This document shows positions 24,610-63,992 of a stretch of 64,000 nt of DNA, piece after piece. This DNA comes from a virus, in UHGV virus genome UHGV-1497419; one strand, 5' to 3'. The notes beneath the pieces are model-generated. The model was given only the letters and a program-made list of their open reading frames with translations, made no database searches and was not told where the DNA came from. How positions within the stretch are numbered: the first letter of the stretch is position 1; the number at the start of each line of letters is the position of its first letter. The position numbers and the translations under genes were made by a program.

Positions 24610-27309
24610 ATGGAAAACGTAGATTTTAAAAACTTACATTTAGTTGGTGATACAGAAACTGATGGTTTACTCCTTGAGTTCACTAAAGTGCACGTAATGG
24701 CTTTCGCAGACTATAAATCTGATGATGAAGAGCCGCCTGTATGGGTCTTTACAGATGAGCCTATCCTCGGTCACAAGTATACCAAGTACATTAAGGGTGG
24801 CTTACGTGAAGGTATTGAGTTTGCGTTAAAGGCAAAACGTCTTTGCATCCATAATGGTCTCGGTTATGACTGGTGGGTTTTCAATCACATTGCACCTGAT
24901 TTATGGAACTTTGATAATCCAAAGTGTAAACCGTGGAGTAATTTCTTTCAGGATTCTCTTATCCAGTCTCGTGTTCAGTGGATGGATAGACCAACTCCAA
25001 AGGGCTATAAAGGTGCTCATGGTTTGGCTGCATGGGGTGCTCGTGTTGGTGTTCGTAAACCAGAGATTGAGCATTGGGGTGTGTGGAATGCAGAAATCTT
25101 CACTCGTGTTGTAGAAGATATACGTATTAACGCCAAAACTAAACGGGCACTTGATAACGAGTATCTCAAGCTTAAGAAGTGTGGTATAGACACTTATGAA
25201 ACTTACATGCGAGCTAAAGAAACATCTTTCTGGATGAGTCAACAAGCTATCAATGGTTGGAAAGCTGATAAAGAGCTTATGGAGTTCCATGTAAAGGAGC
25301 TTGACAAGTTGACTAATGAGCTTGCTTCAGAGGTTGAACCACATCTACCTCCAACTATTAAGACCAAAGGTAAAGTCACTGGAGAAGAGTTTGCAAAAGC
25401 TTGGAATGAGTATGTTGAAACATTTGGTCATGCAGATGGACTGAAAAGAATTACCAAGTACCCTAAGACAAAGTATCGTCAGCAGGTACGTAATGGTGAG
25501 ATGCAGACATACGAAATCAAACCATTTGGTAAGCCAACTACAAAGATTTTTAACATTGAAAAGAGAAATTGCTATACACCAACCAACTCTGTAACTGGTG
25601 AAGAGTACAAGGAAGGCTTTGTAGCAATGAAGGATGCTCGTGCAATTTGCAATGAGTTGAACGCAAAGATTGGTAAGAAATGCAAAGACTGGAAGCCAGT
25701 AAAAACAGTCAAAACTGTGAAGTACTATAACAGCCACGTTGTTAACCACTTTGAACTTGAGTCAAGTCGCTACACAGGTTTGATTGATGCACCATATACA
25801 CCAATTGAGTTTGAAGTTTCTCGTATGACTCAGGTAGCAGTTGTTAAAGACTACTTGAAATCAGTTGGTTGGATTCCAGATGACTGGAACTACAAGAAAG
25901 ACTCAGATGGTCGCCCTGTCAAAGTTTGTCGTTTCAAAGACAATAAAAAGATGATTACAAAACATCCTAAGTGGCAGGAGATGGTGGAACGATGTGGTTT
26001 AAGTTATGTTGAACATGAAGGTGTCCAGTACATTGAGCATAACTGGTCTGTGAAGAAGTACACAGATTTGCTTGAGCCTTGCTTAATCCGTACTTCACCA
26101 AAACTTACTGAATCATCTTATGATACGATTGAAGGTGAGCTTGGACAGAAGATTGCTAAGTACTATACTTTGATGCACCGACGCAGAACTATTGAGAACT
26201 CAAAGGATGATGAAAAAGGTTGGTTGAACCAGATTCGTCCTGATGGTCGCCTTAGTGCTGGTGCAATGGTGTTCGGTACTTCAACTGGACGTATGACGCA
26301 ATATGGTATTGTAAACGTACCGTCTGGTGCTGCTGTCTATGGGGAACCAATGAGGGCAGTGTGGATTTGTGAGGAAGGTACTAACGTTGTCTCTGTAGAT
26401 ATGAACTCGGCCCAGCTAGTTCTGCTTTGTAACTTTATGGGTGATAAAGACTTCACCAAAGCGGTAACACAAGGTAAAGAAGAAATTGAGTTCATTCGTC
26501 AAGAAGATGGACGCTATTACTGCAAACATTTTGATGAGTACCTAAACCCAGAAATTGATAAGTACCTTCGCTATGACTCTGAGAATGACCTGTACGTTGT
26601 CTATTCAGGGACTGATGCACATACACTGAACAGTATTTACTTTAGCTTGAATGATGAGCAGGATATCTTGACTTGTCGAGCTACTCAGGATGAGAATCTT
26701 CTTCATGAGATTAGCAAAGGTCGTAAGAAAGCTAAGAATGGTATCTATGCACTGCTGTTCGGTGCAGGTGATGAGAAGTTTGCTAAGACGATTAAAGCTG
26801 CAACTACTCAGGAAGGTGCGCTGACTAAACAGACTTACTTTATTCGTTTGCCTAAAATTAAGAAGCTGCTAGATGACTTGGAAGCTGACTACAAAGCAAC
26901 TAAAAAGGCACTTGAAGAGGTGTTTGGTAAGACTGCTGCAATCTCTAAAGGAGGTTTTGTAAAGGTTGCTGGAGCTTGGTTGTGGTGTAAATCTCCACAC
27001 AAACTGTTGAACTATCTTTTGATGGGTTCAGAGGCTCAGATTCAAAATGAGGCAATTAACCTTGCTTGTCGTCGTATGATTGACGAAGGTTTGATGAAGT
27101 TGAATGGTCGTAAACCAGCTATTGGTGCTCGCTTACTCTGCGCATATCACGATGAGACAAGCTGGGAATGCCCAGAAAGTATGACGGCAGAGGTGAAAGC
27201 AGTTACTGACTGGTATTATGGGCAAGCTTCTAAGAACTTAGGTCTTAAGAAAGAAACACTTGTTACAGGTACTGGTAAGGTTGGTAAAAGCTGGCTTGAG
27301 GTTCACTAA
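24610..27309 (+). CDS. DNA polymerase, family A, with 3'-5' exonuclease domain
   Basis: Exo I motif DTETDG; motif B RKKAKNGIYALLFGAG; motif C YHDE; start set at MENV behind a GAGGGAG ribosome-binding site. Confidence 0.9.
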   Translation: MENVDFKNLHLVGDTETDGLLLEFTKVHVMAFADYKSDDEEPPVWVFTDEPILGHKYTKYIKGGLREGIEFALKAKRLCIHNGLGYDWWVFNHIAPDLWNFDNPKCKPWSNFFQDSLIQSRVQWMDRPTPKGYKGAHGLAAWGARVGVRKPEIEHWGVWNAEIFTRVVEDIRINAKTKRALDNEYLKLKKCGIDTYETYMRAKETSFWMSQQAINGWKADKELMEFHVKELDKLTNELASEVEPHLPPTIKTKGKVTGEEFAKAWNEYVETFGHADGLKRITKYPKTKYRQQVRNGEMQTYEIKPFGKPTTKIFNIEKRNCYTPTNSVTGEEYKEGFVAMKDARAICNELNAKIGKKCKDWKPVKTVKTVKYYNSHVVNHFELESSRYTGLIDAPYTPIEFEVSRMTQVAVVKDYLKSVGWIPDDWNYKKDSDGRPVKVCRFKDNKKMITKHPKWQEMVERCGLSYVEHEGVQYIEHNWSVKKYTDLLEPCLIRTSPKLTESSYDTIEGELGQKIAKYYTLMHRRRTIENSKDDEKGWLNQIRPDGRLSAGAMVFGTSTGRMTQYGIVNVPSGAAVYGEPMRAVWICEEGTNVVSVDMNSAQLVLLCNFMGDKDFTKAVTQGKEEIEFIRQEDGRYYCKHFDEYLNPEIDKYLRYDSENDLYVVYSGTDAHTLNSIYFSLNDEQDILTCRATQDENLLHEISKGRKKAKNGIYALLFGAGDEKFAKTIKAATTQEGALTKQTYFIRLPKIKKLLDDLEADYKATKKALEEVFGKTAAISKGGFVKVAGAWLWCKSPHKLLNYLLMGSEAQIQNEAINLACRRMIDEGLMKLNGRKPAIGARLLCAYHDETSWECPESMTAEVKAVTDWYYGQASKNLGLKKETLVTGTGKVGKSWLEVH

Positions 27310-29769: not shown

Positions 29770-30078
29770 TAAGAGTCTTTGAAAAGGGTTTTTAAGTGAT
29801 GTGGGGCGAGGCTCGGTGAGGTGGGGTAAGGCATAGTGCGGTGCTGTTTGGTATGGGTAGTTAGTCTCAGCTACATTAAAATGAGACTTACCTTTTTAAA
29901 GGGTCTTTAAACAGGGTCTTTTAATAAGGTTGTGTGATGTGATGTATGGTGCTGTGGAGTTTGGTTAGGTCCGGTCAGGTATGGTATGGTGATGTGAGGT
30001 ATGGGTGGATGGTAGTAGCCACGTTAAAAATCTACCAAGTTTCTAAAGAGTCTTCTGTTGAGGGTTCTTTATAAACAA
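29770..30078. repeat. Composite repeat array A: GGTCTTT-type direct repeats, two GT-rich tracts with 5-nt GG periodicity, conserved hairpins
   Basis: Order is Y-like / GT tract 1 / hairpin X (GTAGTTAGTCTCAGCTACATTAAAATGAGACTTACC) / Y (GGGTCTTTAAACAGGGTCTTTT) / GT tract 2 / hairpin X' / Y-like; no ORF on either strand. Confidence 0.6.
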
Positions 30079-31177: not shown

Positions 31178-31440
31178 AAAAGGTCTTTAAACAGGGTCTT
31201 TTAATGAGGTTATGTATGGTTTGGTTGGGTGTGGTGGTGTAAGGTGTAGTCAGGCTTGGTGAGGGTAGTTAGTCTCAGCTACATTAAAATGAGACTTACC
31301 TTTTTAAAAGGTCTTTAAGAGGGTCTTTTAACAAGGTTAGGTTAGGTCTGGTGTGGTAGGGTTAGGTGGGGTTAGGTTTGGTGTGGTATGGAAGGATGGC
31401 AGTAGCCTTATAAAAAATCTGCCAAATAAGCTATAAAGTC
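31176..31440. repeat. Composite repeat array B (paralogue of array A)
   Basis: Same Y / GT tract / hairpin X / Y / GT tract / hairpin X' order; hairpin X is identical to the array A copy; GT tract 2 reads (GGTNN) about 12 times. Confidence 0.6.
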
Positions 31441-59196: not shown

Positions 59197-59931
59197 TTAT
59201 TTCTGTAATGCGCTCTTCATTTCTGGTGTTGCAATAGTGTCAATCACACCAGTTTTACAGGCATCATCAAACCAGTCTGGTAAGATACCTGCTAAGAACC
59301 CATTGATATTCGTTTTAAGGTACTCTGCAATAAGGGCAGCTTCTTCTTCAATCATCTGCACAACTTCATCTGCATAAGCTGTAATCTTTGAAATACCTTC
59401 ATTAATCTTACTAACAGCCTGATTAGCTAAATCAGAAACAGTATCAAGACCCTTATCAATAGCATCTTGCAAGTCACTTAACACACCATTAACACTATCT
59501 AGTGTACTGTTCATCATGTCAATAGCTTTTTGACCATACTCTGTAGCAACACCCATGATACCACTGAATGGTGTACAACCAACTTGTTCTCCTGCTGCAC
59601 CCATAACATTGGAATACCCCTTTGCTACCTGCATACGTGATGAAAACTCATCAATAGACTTTTGACCGTAGTCTGTCAGAGTTTTAGTAGTTGCTGTAGT
59701 GCTTGTAAGGCTTGTTGTAAAGCTGTTTAGAAGGACTGTTGTAAGTCCAGCAGCAACAAGTTTCTCCTTCATTGTAGGGTCTGTTACAGAACTAATAGAG
59801 CTTACAAGTGATGTAGAAGCAGCTACGGTTCCACCGAGAACTGCTGCACCAGTAATAAGTGGGTTAGAGAACCCTTTACCGGTTTTTAAGAGATTAAAAA
59901 TCTCCTTACCTTGTTCTGTCATCTCTTTCAT
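59197..59931 (-). CDS. Hypothetical Ser/Thr/Ala-rich protein embedded in tRNA cluster
   Basis: Track ORF trimmed to the ATG behind AAGGTG so it does not overlap tRNA-Phe. Confidence 0.35.
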   Translation of the reverse strand: MKEMTEQGKEIFNLLKTGKGFSNPLITGAAVLGGTVAASTSLVSSISSVTDPTMKEKLVAAGLTTVLLNSFTTSLTSTTATTKTLTDYGQKSIDEFSSRMQVAKGYSNVMGAAGEQVGCTPFSGIMGVATEYGQKAIDMMNSTLDSVNGVLSDLQDAIDKGLDTVSDLANQAVSKINEGISKITAYADEVVQMIEEEAALIAEYLKTNINGFLAGILPDWFDDACKTGVIDTIATPEMKSALQK

Positions 59932-60374: not shown

Positions 60375-60382
60375 TTAAATCT

Positions 60383-60940
60383 TTACTTTCTCAGTGGATG
60401 AATAAAGAATGCCAACATAACTCTTTCCCTTGAGAATGCTCTTTCTTCTGGGACAACACTTTTTAGTTTCCATCCAATATAAATTCTCCAGTAAAATTGT
60501 TTACCAAAGATTTTAATTGATGGGATAAAAGCGAATAATCCCCAAGCATTACTGTTCCACATTAGGAGATAACCTGTCTGATTATCTTCGGGGTCAGAAC
60601 TTACGTTGATATTACCTTTCCACTTAGTAACATCTTTTACATCTCTTCCTAATACATGGTAAGAGAAGTTATAAGCTTTGTTTCTCCAGAGCCATCCAAC
60701 TCTCTGCATGTAGACACCTAGCTTACCAATCTTTCTAATCTTAGCCCATCTTTTAACGTGGCCTTCATCACCATCAATCGGGTTGTCATAGGTCTCCATC
60801 CATCTGAATCCAAAAGGTAGATGTCCTTTCTTCTCACTGTAGAATGGAACTACGAAAGGTGCTAAGATGACTGCTATGGTTGCTGCAAATGGTTCTAACA
60901 AAGCTAAGAAAATCCATGAAACATATTTTAAGTATCTCAT
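60383..60940 (-). CDS. Hypothetical membrane protein within tRNA cluster
   Basis: 185 aa; hydrophobic N-terminal segments; GAGGG ribosome-binding site. Confidence 0.35.
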   Translation of the reverse strand: MRYLKYVSWIFLALLEPFAATIAVILAPFVVPFYSEKKGHLPFGFRWMETYDNPIDGDEGHVKRWAKIRKIGKLGVYMQRVGWLWRNKAYNFSYHVLGRDVKDVTKWKGNINVSSDPEDNQTGYLLMWNSNAWGLFAFIPSIKIFGKQFYWRIYIGWKLKSVVPEERAFSRERVMLAFFIHPLRK

Positions 60941-61432: not shown

Positions 61433-61528
61433 ATGAAAGAGGTCTGAAGTTGTGCCGCTAACTCAACTCCGTGGAATTTGTTACGGTCTTCAGTTGACTC
61501 AAAGCGGTCTTTCACTTGACCTCTGAAT

Positions 61529-61857: not shown

Positions 61858-61935
61858 TGGTAGGAGACAAGGGATTCGAACCCTCAAACACCAACTTCTA
61901 AGGATGGTAGGTTTACCAATTACCGTCAATCTCCC
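61858..61935 (-). tRNA. tRNA, class I length, anticodon read as UAG (isotype uncertain)
   Basis: Acceptor GGGAGAU/GUCUCCU, T-loop UUCGAAU, anticodon loop CUUAGAA; D-arm irregular. Confidence 0.4.
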
Positions 61936-62190
61936 ATTAAATCTTTTTAGAGAACTTCTAAGAACCTAAGCAACAAGGTTCCACAACAAGCTGTAATAAC
62001 CTTAGAAGCCCTCTAAAAAGACCTAAAAAGGTCTTTGCATAGTCTTGTTTAATCCGGTGACTAGAACCTTTGGAGAGCTTGATATTATCTCTTCTCCGTG
62101 ACACCTACTAGGTGCTTTATCAGTGTGTACGACAATACACGCGGGATACCAAAGCGACATCCGAATGAAGCTTGGCTTTAAATCTTATTA

Positions 62191-62280
62191 GGCGGTAAGT
62201 AAAGGAGTCGAACCCTCACCGTATCTCTACAGTGGCAACAGTTTTCAAGACTGTTTGGCTGCCATTAGCCGCTACCTACC
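62191..62280 (-). tRNA. tRNA-Ser (anticodon UGA), long variable arm, CCA not fully encoded
   Basis: Acceptor GGUAGGU/ACUUACC, anticodon stem ACAGU/ACUGU, loop CUUGAAA, long variable arm, T-loop UUCGACU. Confidence 0.55.
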
Positions 62281-62293
62281 CCTAATAAGACTT

Positions 62294-62376
62294 TGGCATG
62301 GGACGGAGGAGTTGAACCCCTTTGAAACGGTTTTGGAGGCCGTTGCTCATGCCTTAGAGTCTTAACATCGTCCCAT
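62294..62376 (-). tRNA. tRNA-like gene, possibly tRNA-Trp (anticodon CCA) with expanded D-loop
   Basis: Acceptor AUGGGAC/GUCCCAU and CCA end are clear; best anticodon loop CUCCAAA; D region about 7 nt longer than canonical. Confidence 0.4.
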
Positions 62377-62518
62377 ACTATAATTCGAAGCTTACCGTAT
62401 TATCTCAACACTGTAAAGCCCCTTCTCAGATTATTTACATGTTCTGGAAAACATGAGATACAGACCACCTCCCTACACGGAGACCCACTAAGGTCGTCTA
62501 AGTAATCTGCTAACTAAT

Positions 62519-62595: not shown

Positions 62596-62887
62596 ATTAA
62601 TCTTTAAAGACTCTCTTAGAAAGCCCTTAAAGATGCCCACCTTATTAATCATACCGTGGGCTAGTACGCCAAATTCTTTGATGAGGGATTGGAAGACCTC
62701 ACTGGTGTTTAGCCTATCAAGCTACTGCCAGAAAAACATTGTCGTTTGCATTTATTTTAAATTTGCAAAATAGACGCTACGCAACGAAAACTATTCAGAA
62801 TATGTACAACAAATTTCCCCACATTGTGTTACGTCTAACGCTCATGTATTGGTGTTTGAATTATACATATTATGAAGTATTTTAGTT

Positions 62888-62916
62888 ACTATAAAATAGT
62901 CACATCTCAGTGTCAA
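62888..62916 (-). promoter_or_regulatory. Sigma70-like promoter inside tRNA cluster
   Basis: Minus strand reads TTGACA - 17 nt - TATAGT; transcript would include a ~280-nt leader and tRNA-Arg(UCU). Confidence 0.5.
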
Positions 62917-63165: not shown

Positions 63166-63172
63166 ATTAAAT

Positions 63173-63307
63173 TATCTTTGTAGATAAGCTACCCAGACTT
63201 GCTTAAGGTCTGTAGCGATGTGTCTTTTCGGGTTAAATCTAGAATCCACCCTTCACCTTTGTGGTCGCATACTCACAGGGAAGCTTAATAACTTATCTAC
63301 AAAGATA
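63173..63307. repeat. Perfect 16-bp inverted repeat pair (TATCTTTGTAGATAAG / CTTATCTACAAAGATA) separated by 103 bp
   Basis: Exact reverse complements at 63173-63188 and 63292-63307, each followed by CCAGAC; no ORF or tRNA between them. Confidence 0.6.
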
Positions 63308-63360
63308 ATTACCAGACCGTTGTTTATCATCTTAAGTGCTACCATTACACCAACTCGACA

Positions 63361-63404
63361 TCTGCCGAGTGAAGGAATCGAACCTTCGCCTTTTCTTTAC
63401 CGAG
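63361..63404 (-). pseudogene. tRNA 3'-half remnant (T-arm plus acceptor 3' strand without matching 5' half)
   Basis: Perfect T-arm GAAGG-UUCGAUU-CCUUC then ACUCGGC, but no complementary 5' acceptor strand or anticodon arm upstream. Confidence 0.35.
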
Positions 63405-63422: not shown

Positions 63423-63450
63423 TTGCTGTAAACGGTCTTCTGTAAATTTG
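63423..63450. repeat. 28-nt motif TTGCTGTAAACGGTCTTCTGTAAATTTG, copy 1
   Basis: Identical to 63965-63992; a partial variant lies at 63507-63531. Confidence 0.6.
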
Positions 63451-63590
63451 TTGAGCCAGACCAAGTTTTAAATTTTTCAAAATTAAATTGGCTTGAAATT
63501 TTAAGTAACTTGCTGTATTTGGTCTTCTGCTCCTTTAAAGAATACTCGTAAGAACTCTTTAAGGGAGGGGCTAAATAGCCCTCTCAAAAT

Positions 63591-63964: not shown

Positions 63965-63992
63965 TTGCTGTAAACGGTCTTCTGTAAATTTG
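63965..63992. repeat. 28-nt motif TTGCTGTAAACGGTCTTCTGTAAATTTG, copy 2
   Basis: Exact copy of 63423-63450, about 58 nt upstream (minus sense) of tRNA-Asn. Confidence 0.6.

Follow-up and report, generated by a model that had tools for sequence, protein, structure and literature searches.

A candidate non-coding RNA element between tRNA-Ser and tRNA-Leu in the tRNA cluster of Felix O1-like phages

The spacer between tRNA-Ser(tga) and tRNA-Leu(tag) in the tRNA cluster of Felix O1-like phages is occupied by a new RNA element that is limited to these phages and is unannotated or, in part, mis-annotated. The spacer is a mosaic. Read in the direction of the tRNAs, it consists of a hypervariable hairpin (P1), a small hairpin (P2), a near-invariant core, the hairpin that was first noticed in this DNA (P6) and a long stem (P7) adjoining tRNA-Leu. 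With moderate confidence we read the whole as a non-coding, structured module of an early tRNA operon, in which P7 would be a processing stem and from which a candidate RNA bearing the core would be released.

Results

Position, transcription and annotation of the spacer

The 64-kb window, as we call the whole stretch of DNA that was analysed, comes from a Felix O1-like phage (Ounavirinae) and contains 23 tRNA genes called by ARAGORN, every one on the minus strand. The bounds originally given for the spacer, 61936-62190 (255 bases), proved exact. Both of its neighbours are on the minus strand: tRNA-Ser(tga) (62191-62280) lies upstream in transcription and tRNA-Leu(tag) (61858-61935) lies downstream. 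The description of the spacer as non-tRNA sequence was upheld, neither ARAGORN nor Rfam giving any tRNA-like match within it. The Rfam scan that had been proposed as a check was run, and at the gathering thresholds of Rfam 15 the tRNAs alone pass, with no family assigned to the spacer. At E-values up to 10, the only spacer matches are to plant microRNA-precursor models at 61931-62030, the best of which (MIR473) scores 32.7 bits against a gathering score of 52. These matches only reflect the presence of a long hairpin.

A sigma-70-type promoter on the minus strand (TTGACA-17-TATAGT, 62888-62916; 11 of 12 matches) is located about 700 nt upstream of the element, and the transcript carrying the element likely originates there. 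Felix O1 promoter P45 has identical hexamers and spacing and is also found directly after tRNA-Ile (PMC3185647), from which we infer that the promoter in the window corresponds to P45. The Felix O1 "ORF46" (26690-26887) overlaps the element, and RT-PCR for it was positive with a peak at 5 min post infection, an assay that was not strand-specific and shows transcription rather than accumulation (PMC3185647). Because of this positive signal and its 5-min maximum, the element region is regarded as early-transcribed.

Two further observations concern this part of the genome. Immediately downstream of the promoter, a stretch of about 90 bp (~62795-62885) is found in one of eight relatives (alignment coverage 0.12); it folds into a long hairpin and may be a small insertion element. 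Phage UAB_Phi87 has 608-bp direct terminal repeats (PMC4837284), and the core is found at 1846-1945 in JN225449.1. If JN225449.1 begins at the physical end, the tRNA cluster and the element lie no more than about 2 kb from the left genome end and are transcribed towards that end.

Distribution and conservation

Matches to the spacer were found in 254 phage records, essentially all of them Felix O1-like myoviruses, with E. coli, Salmonella, Shigella and Citrobacter as hosts. The genera represented among the records that were taxonomically checked are Felixounavirus, Suspvirus and Mooglevirus. A blastn search with the 106-nt core, at E-values up to 10, brought up no records beyond these 254; identity is 90% or higher in every one and 99% or higher in 103. 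There is one copy of the element in the window, and no paralogue was found in the other spacers of the cluster. No match to the element was found in 5,426 complete E. coli genomes or in a scan of 185,579 species genomes. Two pattern scans of IMG/VR and one metagenome scan returned only ~88-kb Felix-like contigs and two chance matches. The search for a homologue in the tRNA cluster of a more distant member of the Ounavirinae, Erwinia phage phiEa21-4, was likewise negative. One metagenome contig (CYGL01000008.1, L042/L043; 102,764 bp) has the element three times, with two of the copies inverted relative to each other at a distance of about 800 bp; misassembly or a concatemer junction is the likely cause.

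Identity was calculated from a whole-cluster alignment of the window with eight relatives. The core (62037-62115) is 0.97-1.00 identical across three genera, which makes it the best conserved stretch of the entire tRNA cluster, exceeding each tRNA block (0.85-0.95 between genera). P7 is at ~0.62 between genera, and P1 is at 0.29-0.46, low even against phages of the same genus. Conservation extending past the flanking tRNAs had been named at the outset as a sign to look for in a small RNA gene; it was found here, with the core standing above the tRNA blocks.

Coding potential

The original statement that the spacer holds no ORF of 60 aa or more was confirmed. The longest ORF has 48 aa and a GTG start (61958-62104), and another of 45 aa has an ATG start (62023-62160), both on the minus strand. 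One frame is open across the whole core in nearly all genomes, and for this reason a CDS of ~65 aa has been annotated in several records, under the names ORF46 in Felix O1, gp51 in wV8 and "hypothetical protein" elsewhere. The uninterrupted frame and the annotations that follow from it are what can be said for a small protein gene at this locus, a reading that we find barely credible. The annotated ORFs of Felix O1 and wV8 begin within tRNA-Ser, and the reading frame and the first start codon 5′ of the core vary from phage to phage. Three phages (L004, L009 and L026) have no start codon ahead of the core, the putative ORF of ESh22 is cut by an early stop and a metagenomic genome (L036) carries a 1-nt deletion that shifts the frame. 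Start codon, frame and length are not kept across homologues, as they should be in a small protein. Third-codon positions are as invariant as the others, in contrast to the ORF segment at 59440-59930, where identity is 0.73-0.92 where aligned. The authors of the Felix O1 paper likewise came upon no homologue (PMC3185647). With neither start nor frame conserved, and given the startless phages, the frameshift and the early stop, a coding reading of the spacer was rejected.

Anatomy of the 5′ part and of the core

All features described from here on are read on minus-strand RNA. The spacer opens with the tRNA-Ser 3′ trailer UAAUAAGAUUUAA (62178-62190), which is AU-rich and invariant in the alignments. 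It contains AAGAUUUAA, a motif that returns at the opposite border of the spacer and that, by analogy, is a candidate RNase E-type site. AAGATTTAA is found six times in the window, always on the minus strand, where chance would give 1.6 copies.

The trailer is followed by P1 (62148-62176), a two-tier hypervariable hairpin. Its sequence is replaced between phages, within one genus too, and the hairpin is always kept. Analysed allele by allele, all 20 distinct P1 alleles fold, at -7.2 to -13.7 kcal/mol and a mean z of -1.56. P1 has been swapped or diversified between near-identical phages and across genera, and one allele is common to EC6 (Felixounavirus) and ESh22 (Mooglevirus). A pyrimidine-rich linker (62141-62147) precedes P2 (62125-62140; GUGUA-UUGUCG-UACAC, RNAalifold pairs 62-77), of which a variant, GUGUU-GUCG-AACAC, retains 5 bp. 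A promoter within the element itself was considered and rejected: TTGKCG of the P2 loop stands at a variable distance from -10-like hexamers, and a promoter scan was negative.

The near-invariant core of ~80 nt (62037-62118) contains three modest hairpins, namely P3 (CACCU-AGU-AGGUG, 62102-62114), P4 (GGAGA...UCUCC, 62072-62097) and P5 (UAGUC, a 14-nt loop and GACUA, 62040-62063). The single-stranded joiners between them are likewise invariant, and the z-score of the core fold is only -1.05, which corresponds to an ordinary folding energy. The few variable positions of the core are mostly in predicted loops or joiners; the one stem change (L004) turns a G-C pair at the base of P4 into G-U. Covariation analysis, which the original prediction had suggested, gave a divided answer. 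It revealed the strand-specific pairing of P6 and P7 described below, with two compensatory pairs, whereas the core is so nearly free of variation that its fold cannot be judged in this way; the effective sequence number is ~2.

No target emerged when the other parts of the 64-kb window were scanned for complementarity: the longest match, 12 nt, is what chance would give, as shuffles reach 11-14 nt. CsrA-type binding was rejected, as there are only two to three GGA motifs and they are not conserved in P1. Kissing of two loops, AAACAAG of P5 and UUGUUGCUU of P7, is compatible with the variants seen, but both loops are of low complexity and the P7 loop never varies.

P6, the hairpin first noticed

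The hairpin that drew attention to this spacer is present, with AGACC at 62019-62023, TAAAAA and GGTCT at 62030-62034 in plus-strand letters. On the minus strand it is P6 (AAAGACC-UUUUUA-GGUCUUU, 62017-62036), followed by UUUUU at 62015-62019. The proposal that it is a terminator working in both directions, flanked by T-runs, did not hold. Five U follow the stem on the minus strand only, the plus strand continuing with TTT and then GCATAG; a consensus terminator scan calls nothing on either strand; and the G+C-rich stem with a U-tract on both strands that defines a bidirectional intrinsic terminator is not seen. P6 is a weak, terminator-like hairpin on the minus strand alone, with 3 G-C pairs and a stability of -5.3 to -9.3 kcal/mol depending on the phage. 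Among 26 distinct sequences its cells are paired in 100% of cases, all changes being A-U to G-U or C-G to U-G, and its variation is confined to the 5′ arm.

It is possible to picture P6 and its U-run as an intrinsic terminator or attenuator that tunes transcription of the operon, with the core as a sensor choosing between P6 and alternative structures. The UUUUU that follows P6 on the transcribed strand agrees with such a role, and P6 does compete with an extended form of P7 and with a pairing of AAAGGUU (62064-62070, between P4 and P5) and GACCUUU, the alternative fold having -44.7 against -38.7 kcal/mol. We nevertheless hold a terminator or attenuator to be improbable. The hairpin is weak and escapes the terminator scan, and it is missing from the published list of Felix O1 terminators (PMC3185647). 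Five tRNA genes lie downstream with no promoter in between, and the competing extended P7 arises only once the polymerase has passed. The anti-terminator AAAGGUU:GACCUUU was itself not supported, as it relies on P6 loop bases that lack conservation.

The original remark on motifs shared with the repeat arrays was substantiated: the AAAGACC 7-mer of the hairpin is enriched, with 35 copies in the window against 9.9 expected, 27 of the 35 on the minus strand. Elsewhere in the window, a cassette TTAAAAGACCCTnTTTAAAGACC(T/C)TTTAAAAAGG is found three times on the minus strand (~29900-29925, 31180-31205 and 31305-31330). Its copies sit after C/A-rich, G-poor tracts and before another hairpin, and the cassette and AAAGACC may be phage regulatory or promoter cassettes.

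P7 and strand-specific pairing

Besides the conserved core, the first inspection missed the strongest feature of the locality, a 26-nt inverted repeat, I1 (61937-61962 / 62001-62026). It forms P7, a stem of 17 bp (61947-62016), and the P6-P7 part has a fold z-score of -5.48. At its apex is a hairpin (61963-61980) with an invariant loop UGUUGCUU. The tRNA-Leu(tag) 5′ leader AAAGAUUUAAU (61936-61946) is unpaired when P6 is formed. At the expense of P6, P7 can be extended to 61937-62026, giving 28-30 bp in which the leader is paired.

Pairing is well kept in this part. Among 26 distinct P6-P7 sequences, 97.5% of the P7 cells are paired, and for P6 and P7 together 98.2% of 624 cells are in standard pairs. 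No column shuffle out of 500 attains this pairing fraction or the covariation score, and when the partners are slid by 1-3 columns, pairing falls to 30-67%. Two P7 pairs are altered in both partners, one from U-A to G-C (six sequences) and the other from U-A to C-G (one sequence), and nine P6/P7 pairs vary on one side with pairing never lost. These figures are to be read with the knowledge that the sequences are closely related, that most one-sided changes are transitions which keep a wobble pair almost automatically and that only the two pairs are truly compensatory. Because 86 of the paired cells are G-U, only 84.5% stay intact when the same pairs are read on the plus strand. The difference between 98.2% and 84.5% argues for selection on RNA of the tRNA-encoding strand rather than on DNA or on an antisense RNA, and the pairing of P6 and P7 accordingly points to an RNA that is read together with the tRNAs.

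The same comparison bears on the idea that the spacer acts as DNA, for instance as the binding site of a factor that recognizes AAAGACC, as the target of a homing endonuclease or, near the genome end, as a signal for packaging or replication. The enrichment of AAAGACC and its tandem cassettes in other parts of the window, the make-up of P6 from two inverted copies of this 7-mer, the HNH genes inserted beside the element in some relatives and the unremarkable fold of the core would all suit a DNA element. We still rate it as very unlikely. Pairing is strand-specific and P6 varies in its 5′ arm only, the 80 invariant bases far exceed a typical binding or cleavage site and conservation is lowest (in P7) closest to the HNH insertion point, the reverse of a co-conversion gradient.

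In each of the 28 distinct 3′ halves, the fold of lowest energy is the extended P7. It pairs the 3′ arm of P6 (UAGGUCUUUUU) with the leader (AAAAAGAUUUA) and beats P6 plus P7 by 1.5-7.8 kcal/mol, the two folds of the window having -44.7 and -38.7 kcal/mol. From these energies, P6 is predicted to be formable first during transcription and to yield when synthesis of the 3′ arm of P7 is complete; removal of that arm by cleavage could let P6 form again.

Leader cassettes of the tRNA cluster

P7 is one of four similar structures. A cassette in which the 3′ arm of a hairpin runs into AAAGAU(N)UUAAU, with the 5′ end of a tRNA at once thereafter, heads four sub-clusters of tRNAs, all on the minus strand. 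It is found before tRNA-Gln(ttg) (60375-60420), before tRNA-Leu(tag), where the hairpin is P7, before tRNA-Arg(tct) (62596-62640) and before tRNA-Lys(ttt) (63166-63310), where a stem of 22-29 bp encloses 97 nt. The tRNA-Lys(ttt) leader stem (63170-63191 / 63289-63310) shows compensatory T-A to C-G changes in both arms between genera. Spacers of phiEa21-4 likewise contain stems that end a few bases ahead of a tRNA.

This shared layout speaks for taking the spacer as a purely cis-acting processing spacer, the hairpins of which insulate or guide tRNA maturation by RNases III, E and P while the excised RNA is degraded and has no function. That P7 is the most structured part (z = -5.5), and that a target of the core was not found within the 64-kb window, would agree with it. 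A purely cis-acting spacer is in our view rather unlikely. It leaves unexplained why ~80 nt of weakly structured RNA, at least 100 nt from either tRNA, should surpass the tRNAs in conservation, and P7 and P1 vary freely while the core does not.

Discussion

A proposed course of processing

RNase III cleaves T7 early RNA and rRNA precursors in stems some two helical turns long. In tRNA precursors, RNase E attacks unpaired AU-rich stretches, and RNase P generates the 5′ ends of tRNAs. An RNase III stem is expected to have a largely unbroken double helix of about 20 bp or more; P7, at 17 bp or, in its extended form, 28-30 bp, resembles such substrates and, by analogy, is a candidate RNase III-type processing stem. 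In the module that we favour, the spacer would be read off the minus strand jointly with tRNA-Ser and tRNA-Leu, and its 3′ third (P7, 61937-62026) would serve as a processing and leader stem that ends just ahead of tRNA-Leu. An RNase III cut of the extended P7 would free the downstream tRNA-Leu-Lys-Ala-Gly-Thr block for RNase P, and the AU-rich AAGAUUUAA at both borders would likely act as RNase E-type sites. Cleavage could then release an RNA of ~150-200 nt with P1, P2, the core and P6, and, the 3′ arm of P7 being gone, P6 might fold again and, with its U-rich tail, protect the 3′ end as a hairpin.

Since the core is almost invariant yet weakly structured, it probably contacts a conserved partner in a sequence-specific manner, be it a host protein, a phage protein or an RNA. 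The RNA that bears it is a candidate small stable or regulatory RNA. Going further, one could imagine the core as a trans-acting early RNA, a decoy or regulator of a conserved host factor, with P1 as an arms-race or specificity module; this is a speculative proposal that we think doubtful. The host factors envisaged have the same tentative standing; examples would be an RNA chaperone, a nuclease and a defence protein directed against tRNAs.

Relation to known RNAs

The element is comparable with rnaC (species 1) and rnaD (species 2) of T4, which are also non-tRNA RNAs, are encoded beside tRNA genes and on their strand within the tRNA cluster of the phage, and are excised from the tRNA precursor. 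To our knowledge, the function of rnaC and rnaD is still unknown. The element shares with these RNAs a place in the tRNA cluster and on the tRNA strand, the strand in this case following from wobble pairs. The T4 cluster carries a homing-endonuclease gene, segB, and HNH genes are found near the element in some relatives. There are differences as well. In T4, rnaC bears a T-arm like that of a tRNA (CCGGGTTCGAATCCCGG) and the last bases of rnaD are CACCA, whereas the element has neither a T-arm nor an acceptor-like end and, unlike the T4 RNAs, is bounded by a long stem and a hypervariable hairpin. Local alignment of the element with rnaC and rnaD gave z-scores of -0.7 and -0.4, and nhmmer found nothing in the T4 locus. 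The T4 RNAs are absent from Rfam 15 too. T4 rnaC and rnaD come closest to the element in kind, but it does not belong to their family. The original suggestion of a small RNA gene among the tRNAs, after the T4 example, was in this way supported in part: conservation, the lack of a conserved frame, strand-specific pairing and RT-PCR speak for it, while an Rfam family and similarity to the T4 RNAs were not found.

In mechanism, the element may be likened to two other systems. RNase III processing stems are known from T7 early RNA and bacterial rRNA operons; like P7, they have at least two helical turns, lie between the RNAs of a polycistronic transcript and end by a mature end. P7, a candidate stem, differs from them in that it competes with P6 and precedes a tRNA rather than an mRNA or rRNA. 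The second system is the 3′ external transcribed spacer of E. coli glyW-cysT-leuZ, which is a sponge for RyhB and RybB. Like the element, it comes from a stretch of a tRNA transcript outside the tRNAs themselves; both have an AU-rich border, in the element a candidate RNase E-type site, and a 3′ hairpin that resembles a terminator. The element, however, is internal, between two tRNAs rather than at the end of an operon, and is of phage origin with no host homologue. On the strength of these analogies, the element would resemble RNase III stems and E. coli tRNA-spacer RNAs.

Felix O1-like phages have a classic role in the typing of Salmonella and have been proposed for food biocontrol and phage therapy, and at present the locus is either unannotated or carries a spurious "hypothetical protein". 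If our reading is true, an unannotated RNA gene is added to a well-used phage family, probably with several more in adjacent spacers, and a mis-annotation in many GenBank records is corrected. It would also constitute a second, unrelated case of T4-style non-tRNA RNAs in phage tRNA operons. The invariant core beside a hypervariable hairpin offers a clear genetic handle for functional work.

Other features of the tRNA cluster

Several other parts of the cluster merit description in their own right. Four non-tRNA blocks on the minus strand (61433-61528, 62380-62518, 62640-62780 and 63440-63590) are conserved at about the level of tRNAs (0.89-1.00 across genera) and may be further unannotated RNAs. 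One of them, the 96-nt spacer 61433-61528, folds into a single closed hairpin bearing AAAGACCG, GAAGACCG and CAGACCUC motifs. At 62596-62785 (minus), there is a weak tmRNA match (15.2 bits, where the gathering score is 47; E = 0.004 for a search of 5.5 kb) and a permuted-tmRNA match of 20.3 bits; ARAGORN calls no tmRNA, and the match is probably due to chance. An exact 20-nt repeat, ACAGAAGACCGTTTACAGCA, is present on the minus strand in two spacers of the cluster (63424-63443 and 63966-63985), with 0 expected by chance, and a looser third copy is found near 63500-63529.

Traces of tRNAs are present as well. At 62296-62376 (minus), a tRNA-like cloverleaf that ARAGORN does not call gives a weak match to the tRNA-Sec model (23 bits) and is annotated as a pseudo-tRNA in some relatives. 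Its counterpart in wV8 and phiSUSP1 is only ~50% identical and is occupied by an ORF, which in wV8 is gp50, similar to the HNH endonuclease ORF47 of Felix O1. A truncated tRNA T-arm fragment is located at 63361-63395 (minus).

Phage mistaenkt (L002, 2035-2500) carries an inserted HNH endonuclease gene that separates the element from tRNA-Leu(tag), as do L027, L029 and L037. The start codon of this gene comes after a duplicated GGGAGATTGAC, the first 11 nt of tRNA-Leu(tag), and the duplication seems to provide its ribosome-binding site. There are two alleles of tRNA-Leu(tag), with 5′ ends GGGAGATTGACGG and GCACCTATAGCCC, and they are spread over the genera regardless of taxonomy, which indicates cassette exchange inside the cluster.
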